From: Candidatus Parcubacteria bacterium
GTDB taxonomy: Bacteria > Patescibacteriota > Minisyncoccia > Phycocordibacterales > UBA6065
DNA length: 64,000 nt
Reading direction: 5' to 3'
Assembly (NCBI GenBank): GCA_039796155.1
Contig: JBDKKJ010000007.1
Location: forward strand, 58,409 to 122,408
Shown here: positions 51,460-62,008 of the stretch, one piece after another
Layout: each line of letters begins with the position of its first letter
How positions within the stretch are numbered: position 1 is the stretch's first letter
Position numbers and translations under genes: made by a program
Notes under the pieces: model-generated
The model's database searches: none
What the model was told of the DNA's origin: nothing
Seen by the model: only the letters and a program-made list of their open reading frames with translations

Positions 51460-51915
51460 TTAAAGATTATTCCGGATAGCCTTTTTATAAATTGCAGCCA
51501 CCACACTCGCACCTACAACATCCATGATCAAATCATGTGTCGTGTCCCAGGCATACCCAATATCATGGATGTTATTAAAGTGAAGGCCAATTTCCAAAAA
51601 TTCCCAGGCGATACCGACGGCGAGCGTCCAGAGAATAAGACTCTTTATGCTTATATATTTTTTAAAGAAAGTACCGTATTGAGTTGATACCGCCCACAAA
51701 CTAAAGAGTGCAACCCATGCACCGCCTAAAAAATGCATAGGAAAATCGTACCAATTCGTCAAATAATAAAAGTCTTTAAGCGTACCAAACCAGTGAAGGC
51801 TCACCACCAGAAGCATGACAATAAATGAGGGTATGAAGTATTTGTTCCAAAACATAAAATAAAGTATAGCATTGAAAAAACCTGCTTTCGCAGGTGTTCT
51901 CAGGGGGTCATTCAA
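51460..51915 (-). CDS. Polytopic membrane protein of unknown function
   Basis: 151 aa; 4 hydrophobic helices. True start may be an internal Met (MFWNKYF). Confidence 0.45.
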   Translation of the reverse strand: MNDPLRTPAKAGFFNAILYFMFWNKYFIPSFIVMLLVVSLHWFGTLKDFYYLTNWYDFPMHFLGGAWVALFSLWAVSTQYGTFFKKYISIKSLILWTLAVGIAWEFLEIGLHFNNIHDIGYAWDTTHDLIMDVVGASVVAAIYKKAIRNNL

Positions 51916-52255
51916 AATATTGTCCCTAGTATAAACTAGGTGGGTGACCGCAGATGTGATACCGAGGTATACACCGATATGAGTCTCCCTAAAAAAATGT
52001 TATAGAGTTAATATTTTGAATAACCCTACAGTCATTATAGTTCTCTCTCCTCCCTGTGCAACGGTGGATAACTTATACGAAACAGAAAAAATAAATCGTA
52101 AACTTTTTAGAATTTTTGATGGGGATAACTCCCGCTTGCCCGCTCTCAAAATACTGCTAGAGTTATCAGGTTAACGCTCTTTGAAGATACATGTCCTTCC
52201 CAGGATGATGTGTTTGGAGCACAACCACAATAGCTAGGTTCAGATACTCAGTCCC

Positions 52256-52777
52256 ATGAGAAACCTCCCACGCAAGTTCAGACTTGCATTGGCTGGCATG
52301 ATCGCAAGCCTGTTCAGTATCGGTCCGACACTTGCACTCGCAAGTCCGGCACCTGCCCCCAACAACAACGATCCCGGAAAAGCAGTCGCTACCGCCAACA
52401 TCGATCCGCAGATCACGGCCACGGCGCCCGAATACGTCACGAGCATGAAGGCGAACGCGCCCAACTGCTTTATTGACGTCTTTACGGCACCCGACACCAC
52501 GACCACGATTGCCACGACGACCGACCCGGCCAATATCAAGAAGGCACCGGCGGCCATCACGGCACGTTCCACGACGATGTTCAACGACACGAGCCAATTG
52601 CTCAAGGATCAAGGTGGGACCGCTCTCGTCACCAATACCGGCGTTGTTCAAAACCATCACGGCACTGCGATCGCCGGCGTGAATAATCACCACGGCACCA
52701 CCGCACCGCCAGGACAAGATACCGGCACATTCGTCGCGACCACCGCGAATACCGCGCAGCAACAGCAGGCGGGTTAA
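52256..52777 (+). CDS. Secreted low-complexity (T/A/P/N-rich) protein, first gene of GC-rich island
   Basis: 173 aa; signal peptide MRNLPRKFRLALAGMIASLFSIGPTLALA; repeated NHHGT. GC-rich third codon positions unlike neighbours. The opposite-strand 210-aa ORF is R/G-rich antisense noise. Confidence 0.5.
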   Translation: MRNLPRKFRLALAGMIASLFSIGPTLALASPAPAPNNNDPGKAVATANIDPQITATAPEYVTSMKANAPNCFIDVFTAPDTTTTIATTTDPANIKKAPAAITARSTTMFNDTSQLLKDQGGTALVTNTGVVQNHHGTAIAGVNNHHGTTAPPGQDTGTFVATTANTAQQQQAG

Positions 52778-52808
52778 CGCAGCCCTACCGATCCACAAGG
52801 ATCACTCG

Positions 52809-52834
52809 GCGCCCTCACAAGAGGGCACTTTTTT
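52809..52834 (+). terminator. Intrinsic terminator of island gene 1
   Basis: GCCCTC-acaa-GAGGGC + ACTTTTTT. Confidence 0.7.
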
Positions 52835-52839
52835 ATACC

Positions 52840-52867
52840 TTGACATCCATTAAACGTGTGCTAATGT
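52840..52867 (+). promoter_or_regulatory. Sigma70-like promoter of island gene 2
   Basis: TTGACA (52840-45), 16-nt spacer ending in TGC, TAATGT (52862-67). Confidence 0.5.
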
Positions 52868-53003
52868 CACAAATAGAACAACGCTCACGGGAGCGTTTTT
52901 ACATTGTAAAAAGGCAGAGGGACACAGTTTTTAGTGCTTTATGGAGCCTTAAAAGCTGTGTCTCTCCGATACGTCGGATGCGCAGCAAATACACAAAACA
53001 ACC

Positions 53004-53486
53004 ATGAAAAAGTTCCACACACCCCGTATCGTCATTGCCCTCATCATCACCGCCTGCCTCGGCTTCGCCGGCCTCCACGCCAACGAGACCACAAAGACCG
53101 CCCCCTCGAACACCAAGATCGATGTCGTCCAGCCGATCCAGTTCACCTTCCCCGAGAAGGTTTCTGACGGCACGGTGACGGTTCTCTCCCGCGACCTCCA
53201 GGTTCCGATGAGTAACACCCTCATGATCTCGATGAACATTCTCGCCGGCGTCGGCAAGGTCGACGCGGAAATGGTTGCGCGGTTCGCAAAACAGGGTTAC
53301 GTCCCTGCATCACCCGAGCAAGTGCTGTTGTTCAACCAAACCATCGTGAAAAGCCCAACCTCGACCAACCTGCAGGCACGGCTCGACATGGCCAGCAAGA
53401 CGATCGGCAAGCCGATCGACCAGATGATCATCGTGAAGACGCCGGCCGCCGGCCTCGTGATGAACGACGTCCCGCAGCGTAAATAG
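53004..53486 (+). CDS. Secreted hypothetical protein, island gene 2
   Basis: 160 aa; signal peptide MKKFHTPRIVIALIITACLGFAGLHA; GC-rich codons; no family recognised. Confidence 0.55.
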   Translation: MKKFHTPRIVIALIITACLGFAGLHANETTKTAPSNTKIDVVQPIQFTFPEKVSDGTVTVLSRDLQVPMSNTLMISMNILAGVGKVDAEMVARFAKQGYVPASPEQVLLFNQTIVKSPTSTNLQARLDMASKTIGKPIDQMIIVKTPAAGLVMNDVPQRK

Positions 53487-53506
53487 CTCCTCGGCTTCGG
53501 CCACCC

Positions 53507-53535
53507 GCCACACACTCATCTGTGTGGCTTTTTTA
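53507..53535 (+). terminator. Intrinsic terminator of island gene 2
   Basis: GCCACACA-ctcatc-TGTGTGGC + TTTTTT. Confidence 0.7.
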
Positions 53536-53559
53536 TTGTAAAAACATACTGCGGTTACA

Positions 53560-53587
53560 TTGACAAATGACTTAAAATATGTAGTAT
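53560..53587 (+). promoter_or_regulatory. Sigma70-like promoter of island gene 3
   Basis: TTGACA (53560-65), 16-nt spacer, TAGTAT (53582-87). Confidence 0.5.
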
Positions 53588-53638
53588 CGATAAGGACGGT
53601 TCCTCGTCAACGAACAGTTTTCAACCCAACATAACAGC

Positions 53639-54514
53639 ATGAAAACCAACATATCGGTCCTCGGGCTCATTATGAGCCTTTGCCTTGCAGTGTCTGCATT
53701 TGCGGATACCAAGATCATCAATCTATCGACGCGCGGAGAAGTCGGCGTCGGTAGCAAAGTCCTCATCACGGGTTTCGTGATCACTGGAAATCAACCAAAA
53801 CAAGTCATGATTCGGGGCGTAGGTCCCGGTCTGGCGCCATATGGGGTGACGAAGTTCATCACTGCCCCACGACTAACCCTGGTTGATAGCAACCAGAAAG
53901 AAATCACGAGTGTGACTGGTTGGGACGGCCTTCCCGCCACCCGACTGATTGCGCTCAACGCAGGTGCCTTTGCGCTCTTGCCTGGTAGTAAGGATTGCGT
54001 CATCGTCACAACCCTGCAACCCGGGCTTTACACAGCAGTCATGTCGTCGACAGATACCGCTACGGGCACTGGCCTCATTGAAGTCTACGACGTATCAAAA
54101 AATCCGGGCAGTCGACTCATCAATGAGTCAGCGCGCGTCGTTGGAGATGGCAGCACCATCATCACCGGCGCGGCATTCGAAGGCCTGGGCAAGAAAAAGG
54201 TGTATATCCGCGCCGTCGGACCCGCCCTCGGAGCCCTCGGTGTCACCGAACCAATGGCGAACCCCTCGATCTCAGTGTATAACGGTCGAGGCGTCCTCAT
54301 TGCCAATAACAATAGCTGGCAGACGAGCGGTTTGACAGCACAGTTGCAAGCTCAGACCGGCATGTTCCCCCTCGGAAACGACACCCTGTCAGCAGGTCTC
54401 GTTCTCGAGGTGGACGTCGACGGTCCGACCAGCCTCACCATCCACGTGATTGGTGGTTCACCTGATAAACCCGACACAGGAACAGTCCTTGTCGAAATTT
54501 ACGAAGCTCCTTAG
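53639..54514 (+). CDS. Secreted protein with two tandem copies of a ~130-aa beta-rich domain, island gene 3
   Basis: 291 aa; signal peptide ...LAVSAFA. Repeat 1 is INLSTRGEVGVGSKVLITGFVITGNQPKQVMIRGVGPGLAPYGV. Repeat 2 is LINESARVVGDGSTIITGAAFEGLGKKKVYIRAVGPALGALGV. Confidence 0.6.
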   Translation: MKTNISVLGLIMSLCLAVSAFADTKIINLSTRGEVGVGSKVLITGFVITGNQPKQVMIRGVGPGLAPYGVTKFITAPRLTLVDSNQKEITSVTGWDGLPATRLIALNAGAFALLPGSKDCVIVTTLQPGLYTAVMSSTDTATGTGLIEVYDVSKNPGSRLINESARVVGDGSTIITGAAFEGLGKKKVYIRAVGPALGALGVTEPMANPSISVYNGRGVLIANNNSWQTSGLTAQLQAQTGMFPLGNDTLSAGLVLEVDVDGPTSLTIHVIGGSPDKPDTGTVLVEIYEAP

Positions 54515-60499: not shown

Positions 60500-60685
60500 C
60501 TACCAAGACGATTTCTTTATACCTGGAATGAGGCCATCGTTGGCGAGCTCTCGGAAACAAATTCGGCACACGCCGAAGTCTCGCATAAATCCGTTCTTTC
60601 GCCCGCAGCGGAAGCAACGTCGTACAATTCTCGATGAGAACTTTGGTTTCTTATTAGCTCGTGCTATTACTGATGTTTTTGCCAT
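60500..60685 (-). CDS. rpsN: 30S ribosomal protein S14, zinc-binding type Z
   Basis: 61 aa from [16 protein letters not shown]; CFRCGRK...CRICFRE Cys motif. The ORF-track N-terminal extension is not credible. Confidence 0.9.
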
Positions 60686-60732
60686 TTTTTCCGTGGTGTA
60701 AATAAAAAAGCCTTGAAAAAGCTTGTCCAGGC

Positions 60733-60761
60733 ATACTAGCAAACGAATTACAGGCTGTCAA
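60733..60761 (-). promoter_or_regulatory. Sigma70-like promoter re-starting rpsN-rpsH-rplF... after the inserted cassette
   Basis: Minus strand TTGACA (60756-61), 17-nt spacer, TAGTAT (60733-38). Confidence 0.55.
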
Positions 60762-60775
60762 ACCTGTTACCTCCC

Positions 60776-60883
60776 TCCCTCATATTCTGCCTATCTGGGG
60801 CACGCGTCACGGGTCCCTAACCCATGCGCTCACTCTCGGCCCGTCGGCCTGCGAGAGCCCCCATCCAGGCAGAATATGAGGGA
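60776..60883 (-). ncRNA. Unassigned 108-nt GC-rich structured element (17-bp terminal inverted repeat enclosing a three-way junction); RNA or DNA-level element, strand tentative
   Basis: TCCCTCATATTCTGCCT (60776-92) is the perfect complement of AGGCAGAATATGAGGGA (60867-83). Inside: TGGGG/CCCCA, hairpin CTCTCG..GGCC-GGCC..CGAGAG, and hairpin GCGC..GGGT-ACCC..GCGT. One G-T pair on the minus strand would be an A-C mismatch on the plus strand. Confidence 0.45.
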
Positions 60884-60898
60884 AAGATAAAGAGTATG

Positions 60899-60926
60899 TT
60901 GACTCGTTGTTATTAGTTGCTAGTAT
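60899..60926 (+). promoter_or_regulatory. Sigma70-like promoter facing the 3' end of the toxin gene
   Basis: TTGACT (60899-904), 16-nt spacer, TAGTAT (60921-26). Confidence 0.45.
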
Positions 60927-60932
60927 AGACAT

Positions 60933-61014
60933 ACAAACGGCCTTCGGGCTTTGATTTACTAAGGTAAATCAGGAAAAAAAAAGCGGTCAAAGCAAGTCTT
61001 TGACCGCTTTTCTT
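60933..61014 (+). ncRNA. Candidate ~80-nt sRNA convergent with and antisense to the 3' end of the MazF-like gene
   Basis: Downstream of the promoter: hairpin GCC-ttcg-GGC (60940-49), hairpin GATTTAC-taag-GTAAATC (60953-70), an A9 linker, and a 10-12-bp terminator hairpin GCGGTCAAAG-caagt-CTTTGACCGC (60983-61007) + TTTTCTT. No ATG. Confidence 0.4.
60974..61010. terminator. Bidirectional intrinsic terminator at the toxin gene 3' end
   Basis: Hairpin 60983-61007 flanked by A9 (T9 on the minus strand) and TTTTCTT on the plus strand; includes the toxin stop codon. Confidence 0.75.
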
Positions 61015-61379
61015 ATAACCTTAAAGGAAAACTCTTCTGTAAAACCAATTTTATTAATAAGTCTTTTTACACTCATGAGTCGTATTTGAGAGATAATAGC
61101 AGTTCGCTTCTCCCCTTCCTGGCTTATGCATTCAACATAATATGGATTACTTTTATGTTTCGTGGAGAGTGGTATGGCCCAAAATATGTACTGATTAAAC
61201 TTTTTAAGCACAATAATTGGCCTGCTAAATAGACCTCCTTTACCGTCCTGTTCATAACCAATATTTGCACCCAATCTACTCCACCAAATATCACCCTCTT
61301 TGAAATAAAGATTAGACTCACCAACCTGGCAATCAATTGATTCTTTTTGCTCGCCCCATGTTTTAAAGTCTTTTTTCAT
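60987..61379 (-). CDS. MazF/PemK-family toxin-like protein (solo, no adjacent antitoxin ORF)
   Basis: 130 aa; EGDIWWSRLGANIGYEQDGKGGLFSRPIIVLKKF...AIPLSTKHK...AIISQIRLMSVKRL follows the PemK/MazF pattern (GDIW..L....G.EQ.G..RP..VL....PLT/S....Q.R). Confidence 0.6.
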   Translation of the reverse strand: MKKDFKTWGEQKESIDCQVGESNLYFKEGDIWWSRLGANIGYEQDGKGGLFSRPIIVLKKFNQYIFWAIPLSTKHKSNPYYVECISQEGEKRTAIISQIRLMSVKRLINKIGFTEEFSFKVIRKAVKDLL

Positions 61380-61423
61380 AGAACCAGTTTACAGAAGATA
61401 AGATAAAGTAAAGATAAAACATA

Positions 61424-61453
61424 AAGCAAAAACCACCTTGCGGTGGTTTTTGC
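61424..61453 (-). terminator. Intrinsic terminator directly after rplE (interrupts the spc operon)
   Basis: Minus strand AAAAACCACC-gcaa-GGTGGTTTTT + GCTTTATGTTTT, 7 nt after the rplE stop. Confidence 0.8.
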
Positions 61454-61459
61454 GGAGTA

Positions 61460-62008
61460 TTATTTTGCAGATTCTGTCTTCTTGATTGGGAATCCGAGGA
61501 GTTCGAGGAATTTCTTTGTCTGATCCTTTGGCTTCAAGTTTGTGAGAACTGTGATACCAAGACCGAACACATCCTTCAATTCTTCTTCAGAACATTCAGG
61601 GAAAATAGTGTTTTCCTTGATTCCGATTGAGTATCCACCCATTCCGTCAGCTGATGTTGATGGGAGTCCGCGGAAGTCCTTTGTTCGAGGGAGAGCAATG
61701 TTTACAAGCTTCTCGAGGAAGTGCCACATCTTTGCACCTCGGAGAGTAACCTGGTAGCCCATAGGATCTCCTTCTCGGCTCTTGAATGATGCAATAGATT
61801 TCTTTGCACCTCGGAGAACTGACTTCTGACCTGTGATTTTCATCAATCGGTCGCCAGCGAGTTCAACCTTCTTCTTATCACCAAAAGATCCAACACCCAC
61901 GGTTACAACAACCTTGAGCACCTTTGGAGCTTGCATAGCGTTTGTGAATCCGAATTGCTTCTTCATCACTTCGAATGCGTCAACCTGTTTTTCTTTAAGA
62001 GTTTTCAT
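61460..62008 (-). CDS. rplE: 50S ribosomal protein L5
   Basis: 182 aa; NAMQAPKVLKVVVTVGVG...YSIGIKENTIFPE. Confidence 0.92.
   Translation of the reverse strand: MKTLKEKQVDAFEVMKKQFGFTNAMQAPKVLKVVVTVGVGSFGDKKKVELAGDRLMKITGQKSVLRGAKKSIASFKSREGDPMGYQVTLRGAKMWHFLEKLVNIALPRTKDFRGLPSTSADGMGGYSIGIKENTIFPECSEEELKDVFGLGITVLTNLKPKDQTKKFLELLGFPIKKTESAK

Follow-up and report, generated by a model that had tools for sequence, protein, structure and literature searches.

The rplE-rpsN locus

The window analyzed here, a whole 64-kb stretch (64,000 nucleotides [nt]) of a Candidatus Parcubacteria bacterium contig, carries within its ribosomal protein genes a GC-rich element whose fold is maintained by compensatory base changes in related loci. 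The genes at the locus all lie on the minus strand, in the order rplX, rplE, the rplE terminator, a toxin gene, a bidirectional terminator, the element, a promoter, rpsN, rpsH, and further genes. The terminator scan placed an intrinsic terminator after rplE (61460-62008, minus strand) at 61426-61453 on the same strand. It forms the upstream edge of a variable slot, and equivalents were found in the related loci L034, L035, L036, and L037. The accessory cargo between rplE and rpsN is a gene for a 130-amino-acid (aa) PemK/MazF-family toxin (60987-61379, minus strand; Pfam PF02452, E value of 4e-9), whose stop codon is overlapped by the bidirectional terminator (60976-61014). The first gene downstream of the element is rpsN (60500-60685, minus strand; Pfam PF00253), encoding a zinc-type S14 protein of 61 aa. 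Its promoter, TTGACA-N17-TAGTAT with the TG of an extended -10 box (60733-60761, minus strand; promoter scan), is kept in every related locus, with or without the element. The initial annotation of this DNA rightly placed the element close upstream of the -35 box (60761-60756), but at a distance of 15 nt, where we measured 14 nt. The promoter scan also detected a divergent promoter that the annotation did not include, TTGACT-N16-TAGTAT (60899-60926, plus strand), with its -35 box 15 nt from the element. It drives a small RNA of ~83 nt (60932-61014, plus strand) that is convergent with the toxin gene and has three hairpins, the last being the bidirectional terminator. The element lies between the two back-to-back promoters and upstream of both. 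The window sequence is also present in the JGI and Logan contigs L001 and L002.

Fold of the element

The core of the element as first described (60776-60883, minus strand) is bounded by the 17-mers TCCCTCATATTCTGCCT (60776-60792) and AGGCAGAATATGAGGGA (60867-60883), and their reported perfect complementarity is exact. Both 17-mers are unique within the window even at 3 mismatches (0.16 chance matches expected), and a repeat search found the pair to be the longest inverted repeat there. The GC enrichment of the interior also held, with 70% in the interior, 47% in the arms, and 43.8% in the window. As a minus-strand RNA, the element has a minimum free energy (MFE) of -79.4 kcal/mol, compared to -44.0 ± 3.6 for shuffled sequences (z score of -9.98). 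The plus-strand RNA reaches -62.4 (z score of -7.9).

The MFE fold on the minus strand covers 116 nt (60772-60887), including a G-U extension of the closing stem, and covariance model R1 matched the minus strand at 60767-60889 with 119.6 bits. The architecture is a three-way junction with two hairpins, closed by stem P1, a GA/GA loop, and stem P2. P1, which rests on the MFE fold and on covariation, has 22 bp, consisting of the 17-bp core, one inner G-U pair, and four outer pairs (two G-U, one C-G, and one U-A). Its 22-nt 5' strand, UCUUUCCCUCAUAUUCUGCCUG (60866-60887), is pyrimidine rich, and its 22-nt 3' strand, UAGGCAGAAUAUGAGGGAGGGA (60772-60793), is purine rich. The remaining parts were assigned from the MFE fold. 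A 2x2 tandem GA/GA internal loop (5' half, 60864-60865; 3' half, 60794-60795) leads to the 5-bp P2, UGGGG/CCCCA (60859-60863 with 60796-60800). The P3 hairpin (60832-60858) reads GCUCUC-GCA-GGCC-GACG-GGCC-GAGAGU, with a GCA bulge and a GACG tetraloop, and the P4 hairpin (60804-60829) has an 11-bp stem with a bulged A and an AGG loop. The junction strands are GA between P3 and P4 (60830-60831) and GUG from P4 to P2 (60801-60803). All helices named in the initial annotation were found in this fold, with small corrections. Its 3x3 internal loop is present but is better read as one G-U pair plus the 2x2 tandem loop, and its second hairpin is better drawn as the 11-bp stem with a bulged A. The observation of a structured element is confirmed.

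Conservation and covariation

Orthologous regions were collected via exact-protein look-ups of toxin and S8 homologues, and element homologues were found at the orthologous position in L032, L033, L035, and L036. Together with the window, these make up a comparison set of five full sequences, each of which folds alone into the same architecture (z scores of -3.9 to -10). The RNAalifold consensus of the five contains 44 pairs, 26 with a compensatory change. In an explicit count, 27 of the 44 pairs were changed on both sides and 89.5% of cells were paired, with the consensus structure derived from the same five-sequence alignment that was used for the pair counts. None of 500 column shuffles reached any of five measures, and in a control with the 3' partners slid by 1 to 3 columns, only 5 to 8 pairs were changed on both sides. 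Compensatory pair maintenance, the generic mark of a conserved structured RNA, is present in these five sequences. The initial annotation had allowed for a single-copy, unconserved element; what we found is conservation in relatives with abundant compensatory base changes.

The stems differ in sequence and agree in pairing. Across P1 and P2, 17 of 26 pairs are changed on both sides in the five members, and the P1 arms of the window and L032, almost unrelated in sequence, nevertheless form 22 and 26 bp (the latter with one mismatch). P1 has 24 bp in L035, and the P1-P2 duplex is at least 22 bp long in the window, L032, and L035. The 2x2 loop is GA/GA also in L036, AA/GG in L035, and Watson-Crick paired in L032. 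In L035 and L036, P2 is UAGGG/CCCUA, a compensatory change from G-C to A-U relative to UGGGG/CCCCA. The tip stem of P3 is GGCC/GGCC in the window, CCGC/GCGG in L032, and GGGC/GCCC in L036, with a constant GRCG tetraloop. MAFFT aligned P4 with the P4b hairpin of other members, with 7 of 10 pairs changed on both sides; the P4 sequence resembles the first extra hairpin of L036. For the family as a whole, P1 is 17 to 26 bp long and variable in sequence, with a pyrimidine-rich 5' strand and a purine-rich 3' strand. Usually a tandem purine 2x2 loop comes next, and then the 5-bp P2 and a junction bearing the conserved P3 (GGA/GA internal loop and GRCG tetraloop) and one to four further hairpins.

While the peripheral hairpins vary, the P2-P3 core is conserved. 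The GCCUGGAUAGGGGCUCACGGAGG block is identical in L033 and L036, while the adjoining promoter spacer is scrambled, which points to a sequence-level constraint on this core. The minus strand, which is the operon-sense strand, was suggested early on as the RNA strand, and indeed it is the more stable one in all five members. The pair cells include 18 G-U compared to 7 A-C, and the stems are nearly all Watson-Crick paired (44 of 44 in L035). Across this alignment, the pattern of compensatory change shows what is probably selection on a folded single strand, of which the operon-sense strand folds best. The element is very probably a member of a small, previously undescribed structured family that occupies one locus in a Parcubacteria/Paceibacteria clade, always between the rplE terminator and the rpsN promoter.

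Distribution among related loci

The related loci were ordered by the DNA identity of rpsN-rpsH to the window. The closest, L034 (94.5%), has neither cargo nor element. L003 (92.5%) carries the toxin and small RNA but not the element, and a purine tract like the 3' end of P1 is left there. L033 (91.8%) has the element with a 21-nt extension in P3; its cargo is undefined, as the contig ends. In L036 (88.0%), a distant toxin and other small open reading frames (ORFs) accompany an element of 207 nt with three extra hairpins. The element is also present in L035 (86.5%), where the cargo is ~450 nt of promoter-driven noncoding DNA with no toxin. L037 to L040 (80.8%) have no cargo and no element. Identity is not measurable for L032 and L027, whose contigs end. 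L032 has the element and a toxin that is 80% identical over the aligned 73% of the query, and the L027 contig, also with a toxin, ends in the first bases of an element.

In every member, the element ends 7 to 14 nt before the same rpsN promoter. It was seen only with cargo between rplE and rpsN (the window, L032, L027, L035, L036, and possibly L033), and the cargo-free loci L034 and L037 to L040 lack it. The toxin-small RNA module occurs without the element both in other contexts (L004 and L005) and at the same locus (L003), which indicates that the element goes with the rplE-rpsN slot and not with the toxin; in L035, the element is present without the toxin. We therefore rejected the element as a part of the toxin module or as its antitoxin, since each occurs without the other. 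Within the clade of at least 85% identity, both deep branches include carriers of the element, which suggests an old origin followed by losses or allele exchange and not a recent insertion into the window.

Searches for known families, copies, and motifs

The early statement that the element matches no known RNA family stood. No match was obtained with Rfam 15 at the gathering threshold, and at an E value of ≤10 there was only a chance match to MIR1446 (15.7 bits versus 70). L032, L033, L035, and L036 gave no match at an E value of ≤1. Our literature searches found no description of the element. With the covariance model, no second copy was detected in the 64-kb window, and across 124 kb of related loci the model matched the orthologous site only. 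No target-site duplication was seen; the flanks ACTCTTTATCTT and GGGAGGTAACAG share no direct repeat. An arm-based pattern gave 3 chance matches with unrelated interiors in 185,579 species-representative genomes; it did not return the window's own contig and is too strict for diverged relatives. A loop-plus-P2 pattern, likewise too strict to return the own contig, gave 1 chance match among metagenome contigs, in a high-GC coding sequence. Both exact patterns were designed before the homologues were known and are weak negatives. In viral contigs, a 16-mer arm gave 20 single-arm chance matches, and two consensus patterns and an S8-based search gave nothing. A blastn search against plasmids and phages found nothing meaningful.

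Several specific motifs were tried and rejected. The self-cleaving ribozyme proposed for testing in the initial annotation is not supported, as no ribozyme family scored even at an E value of ≤10. The annotation had seen no hammerhead core; none of the members has CUGANGA on its plus or minus strand, and the junction itself consists of GA and GUG. Integron attC boxes (RYYYAAC/GTTRRRY) are absent from the stem base in all five members, apart from a single unrelated GTTRRRY in the L036 flank. Against an attC cassette array, each locus has just one element, including L036 with its two cargo units, and the neighboring genes in the window all encode ribosomal proteins (an integrase farther away may still exist). 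An autoregulatory rpsN leader (5' untranslated region) was rejected because the conserved extended -10 promoter comes after the element and because L034 and L037 have the same operon without it. The element is not an intrinsic terminator, as P1 is followed by GGGAGGUAACAGGUUUGAC with no U tract. A k-turn in the ACGGA/GA region of P3 was tried by eye, and its registers do not fit. Short-word similarities to 5S rRNA helix I, the 16S 530 loop (ACGGAGGGUG, L033 only), and the sarcin-ricin loop were put down to chance, and the purine tract at the P1 3' end, which resembles a Shine-Dalgarno sequence, precedes an ORF that is not conserved.

Signals for independent transcription were also sought. The promoter scan found no two-hexamer promoter directly upstream of the element in the five loci, and the terminator scan found no terminator directly downstream in the same loci. 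Terminator-like sites after the element are lacking in L032, L033, and L036. The window and L035 each have one weak terminator-like site that overlaps the rpsN -35 box and is not conserved in other members.

A possible cis-acting processing or insulating RNA

We tentatively favor, with a probability of about 0.3, a cis-acting structured RNA module that is carried on longer sense transcripts and processes or insulates the cargo from the rpsN operon. It is favored because the element has no recognizable promoter or terminator of its own, unlike the structured RNA at 51880-52062 in the same window. The structure, conservation, synteny, and strand bias of the element and the lack of such signals are shown by the data above; transcription across it, its cleavage, and the resulting insulation are inferred. 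The element would not be an autonomous gene but would be carried on sense transcripts across the cargo/rpsN boundary. Two sources of such transcripts are conceivable, namely, terminator read-through from upstream and starts at the sense face of the divergent -10 box, which is nearly symmetrical. Hexamers of the TATACT/TATAGT/TATATT type lie on the sense strand opposite the small RNA -10 box, which fits the principle of bidirectional promoters as outlined in PMC10268837 and PMC12825309. Once folded, the coaxial P1-P2 duplex of at least 22 bp would form a site for a double-strand-specific nuclease or binding protein of the RNase III type, and a very stable end structure, and would cut or seal the sense transcripts. 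In this way, the accessory cargo, meaning toxin mRNA and sequences antisense to the small RNA, would be separated from the essential operon of rpsN, rpsH, rplF, and further genes, whose own promoter is retained. The role of the P2-P3 core, which is conserved, may be to position a protein or to set the geometry of cleavage. The minimum RNase III substrate is 22 bp, as quoted in PMC5371410, and this size (~22 bp or more) is reached by P1 alone in the window, L035, and L032. The occurrence of the element only in cargo-bearing loci also fits insulation.

A number of observations weigh against a processing or insulating role. P1 is degraded in L033 (13 nonstandard cells) and L036 (6). The P2-P3 sequence is identical at 23 of 23 positions between L033 and L036, and a plain processing stem needs no such identity, just as the multihairpin junction would be superfluous for one. 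The upstream terminator in the window is strong (10-bp stem and 9 U), so that little read-through is expected. L003 carries the toxin cargo without the element, which makes insulation dispensable there. No RNase III signature was found in the 64-kb window, which is uninformative for the whole genome. Finally, the five full sequences come from one narrow clade.

About equally likely is a stand-alone small stable RNA, acting in trans or binding a protein, that would be made from a weak or noncanonical promoter or from longer precursors; P1 would clamp its ends, and the P2-P3 core would be the binding surface. The primary-sequence conservation of this core, the long stem clamping the ends, and the modular gain and loss of peripheral hairpins, as in many stable noncoding RNAs, agree with such a molecule. 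An extended -10-like sequence, TGGTGTAAT, was seen by eye 3 nt before P1 in L033, and a block conserved in L027, L032, and L036, GTTGTTA(C/A)ATA(G/A)AC, directly precedes P1. However, the key A at -11 is missing from this block, which may just as well belong to the upstream portion of the divergent promoter. In addition, no locus has a two-hexamer promoter before or a terminator after the element, and the close relatives L034 and L003 live without it. The conservation of structure over stem sequence would suit a folded single-stranded DNA site, a structure-specific recombination site or landing pad that resembles integron attC sites in its logic and marks a cassette slot near the rpsN promoter. 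In attC sites, structure is likewise conserved while sequence is not. We consider such a site unlikely. The 5' side of the element does adjoin differing cargo (toxin and small RNA, distant toxin and other ORFs, or a 450-nt noncoding insert), and the near-complete Watson-Crick stems, best seen in L035, are typical of inverted repeats acting at the DNA level. The negative GC skew of the plus strand suggests that the folding strand has the leading-strand sequence; in that case, it would serve as the template of lagging-strand synthesis and lie exposed at the replication fork. Against this, there is no attC R-box consensus, no recombinase nearby in the window, and only one element per locus even with two cargo units. 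Conservation is highest in the interior and not at the stem base, where attC sites are recognized, and the toxin module also occurs elsewhere without the element (L004 and L005). A broader proposal is quite unlikely in our view. It envisages an undescribed system for cassette capture, or a hot spot system, in the ribosomal protein superoperon of Patescibacteria, with the element, as folded RNA or single-stranded DNA, serving as its recognition structure. The element would be a landing pad beside a strong housekeeping promoter at which small selfish modules, among them RNA-controlled MazF toxins, small hydrophobic peptides, and orphan noncoding RNAs, would be exchanged, with no known integrase or attC signature.

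The position of the element exactly between the back-to-back -35 boxes of the window (15 and 14 nt away), repeated between divergent promoters in L032 and L036, raises a role as double-stranded DNA, with the inverted repeat or a cruciform serving as a spacer or supercoil sink between the strong promoters of the small RNA and rpsN. In L003, these -35 boxes are only 19 nt apart. We regard such a role as very unlikely. The strand asymmetry described above (the G-U excess and a sense strand that is always more stable) is unexpected for a symmetrical duplex, as is the covariation inside the P3 and P4 hairpins, and L035 has no scan-detected divergent promoter beside the element. A long spacer between arms disfavors cruciform extrusion, and here it is 74 nt. 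The initial annotation also raised a miniature inverted-repeat transposable element (MITE), which we considered together with other nonautonomous transposons as a recent insertion between the toxin module and rpsN. Such an insertion would have in its favor the perfect 17-bp terminal repeat, the length of ~110 bp, an interior with a GC content above that of the genome, and absence from the closest relatives L034 and L003. It is nonetheless highly improbable. The element is single copy in the window and in all related loci and has no target-site duplication, and it occupies the same, orthologous site in lineages down to 86% rpsN-rpsH identity with arms that differ and covary. The purine tract in L003 looks like a deletion scar and not like an empty site, and the strict pattern found no element with these arms in the species-representative genomes. 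A small protein encoded antisense across the element is the least probable reading of all. An open frame does span the element on the antisense strand in all five members, and the two differences in length, 21 and 84 nt, are both divisible by three. However, the members do not share one frame: L032 and L033 are offset by one from the window, L035, and L036, and reading L032 in the L035-type frame runs into a stop. No start codon is conserved, substitutions within stems are compensatory, and the ORF would run head-on into the rpsN promoter.

Resemblance to known systems

The closest parallels to a cis-acting processing RNA are the RNase III intercistronic hairpins of bacterial operons, such as those at rplL-rpoB and rpsO-pnp in Escherichia coli, and the rRNA spacer stems. 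Like the element, these form a duplex of about two turns with a small internal loop and lie between transcription units of translation-gene clusters, near a terminator or attenuator. The element differs in that its stem closes a conserved multihairpin junction and lies upstream, not downstream, of the promoter of the next unit; cleavage here is predicted. Its duplex reaches the 22-nt minimum quoted in PMC5371410.

MITEs and palindromic repeats (Correia, RUP, ERIC, and REPIN) share with the element a length of ~100 to 130 bp, terminal inverted repeats, long hairpins, and intergenic positions near promoters. In contrast to them, the element is single copy at one orthologous site, its arms covary, and it has neither a target-site duplication nor a partner transposase. 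With attC sites it shares structure-over-sequence conservation, a size range of 57 to 141 nt, an interrupted stem with a variable and sometimes branched tip, and a neighborhood of exchangeable small cassettes. Integron cassettes next to attC sites include toxin-antitoxin modules. Unlike attC sites, the element has no RYYYAAC/GTTRRRY boxes, is conserved in its interior rather than at the stem base, and occurs once per locus with no integrase seen. The 6S RNA, the 4.5S/signal recognition particle RNA, and the bacterial Y RNAs resemble it in their long end-pairing stem, conserved inner domain, variable peripheral hairpins, and length of 110 to 200 nt. The element differs from these RNAs in giving no Rfam score even at an E value of ≤10, in lacking its own promoter and terminator, and in being patchy among close relatives. 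With the type III hammerhead it shares only the topology of an open stem closing a three-way junction with two capped hairpins; its junction strands are 0 to 2, 1 to 2, and 3 nt long, without the CUGANGA/GAAA cores and without an Rfam match.

The element is real, selected, lineage restricted, and outside Rfam, a new family of a familiar kind of object. Patescibacteria (the candidate phyla radiation) have tiny genomes with very little noncoding DNA, and few noncoding RNAs have been described in them. The element is likely functional because it is kept by compensatory evolution in such genomes. The element sits in the cell's most conserved gene cluster, at the margin of a slot whose toxin and RNA cargo varies among relatives. 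As an insulating or processing module, it would illustrate the way in which an essential operon can tolerate selfish insertions; as a small RNA or recombination site, it would be a new family for a poorly explored phylum.

Surroundings of rpsN

The spc ribosomal protein cluster of this clade is split between rplE and rpsN by a terminator and a strong promoter, and the rplE-rpsN gap is a hot spot with different small cargo in close relatives (the window, L003, L032, L035, and L036 versus L034 and L037). A near-repeat, TTTATCTTT(A/C)C, occurs at ~61408-61418 (minus strand) upstream of the toxin gene and at 60888-60898 (minus strand) just 5' of the element, and TTTATCTTTCC is found upstream of the toxin genes in L032 and L036. 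The near-repeat could be a trace of the entry of the toxin module or a pyrimidine-rich coincidence.

The 5' leader of rpsN (60686-60732, minus strand), GCCyrgACAAGCUUUUUUCAAGGCUUUUUUAUUUACAyCAsGGAAAAAAUGG, is near-invariant in L003 and L033 to L037, relatives whose coding DNA is only 80% identical. It has no strong Shine-Dalgarno sequence and may be regulatory or translation enhancing for the rpsN-rpsH unit. The public gene calls of L001, L002, and L003 omit the 61-aa zinc-type rpsN (window 60500-60685, minus strand), and in L001 and L002 an antisense ORF of 57 aa is called in its place. Elsewhere in the window, positions 52001-54000 have a GC content of 52.7%, compared to 40.6% to 47.7% in the rest, with overlapping ORFs on both strands and no Rfam match at the gathering threshold.

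The toxin, its convergent small RNA, and other RNAs

A second lead is a MazF-fold toxin whose partner seems to be a convergent small RNA and not a protein antitoxin. Homologues of the PemK/MazF-family toxin occur in other genomic contexts as well. In seven of the eight toxin loci examined, there is no neighboring protein antitoxin gene and a convergent promoter follows. These seven (the window, L003, L004, L005, L026, L027, and L032) represent three different genomic contexts. The convergent promoter is TTGACT-N16/17-TAGTAT in close relatives, and the -35 or -10 hexamer differs in L004 and L005. The convergent RNA of ~85 nt has an invariant GGCC-UUCG-GGCU hairpin, a covarying 9-bp hairpin, and a terminator stem reaching into the final codons of the toxin gene. 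RNAalifold gave 28 pairs for it, 10 with a compensatory change, and it had no Rfam match. Judged from these features, it is a candidate RNA antitoxin or 3'-overlapping antisense regulator of the MazF-fold toxin. In L036, the eighth locus, a distant toxin is accompanied by another type of convergent small RNA; a 22-aa hydrophobic peptide is encoded there by a promoter-driven ORF, and another ORF lies at ~960-1400. In L032, one extra A in the A run right after the toxin ATG (326-345) is either a frameshift or an assembly error. The public call starts internally (95 aa), and tblastn aligns residues 2 to 128.

Where other loci have the toxin module, L035 (1513-2000) has a consensus promoter, TTGACT-16-TATAGT, followed by ~450 nt without a convincing ORF or an Rfam match. 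The stretch folds moderately better than expected (z score of -2.35) and has a terminator-like hairpin at its end; it may be an orphan noncoding RNA or a decayed gene. The structured RNA at 51880-52062 (minus strand) is a second clamp-closed RNA of the window and resembles an ordinary small RNA gene, with a closing stem of ~17 bp, two inner hairpins, and a z score of -5.3. The terminator scan found its intrinsic terminator at 51895-51880, and a promoter-like TTGCAC-16-TATAAT was seen by eye, unflagged by the promoter scan. With a subthreshold Rfam match to 6S RNA (16.1 bits; E value of 0.4), it may be a shortened 6S RNA of this organism.

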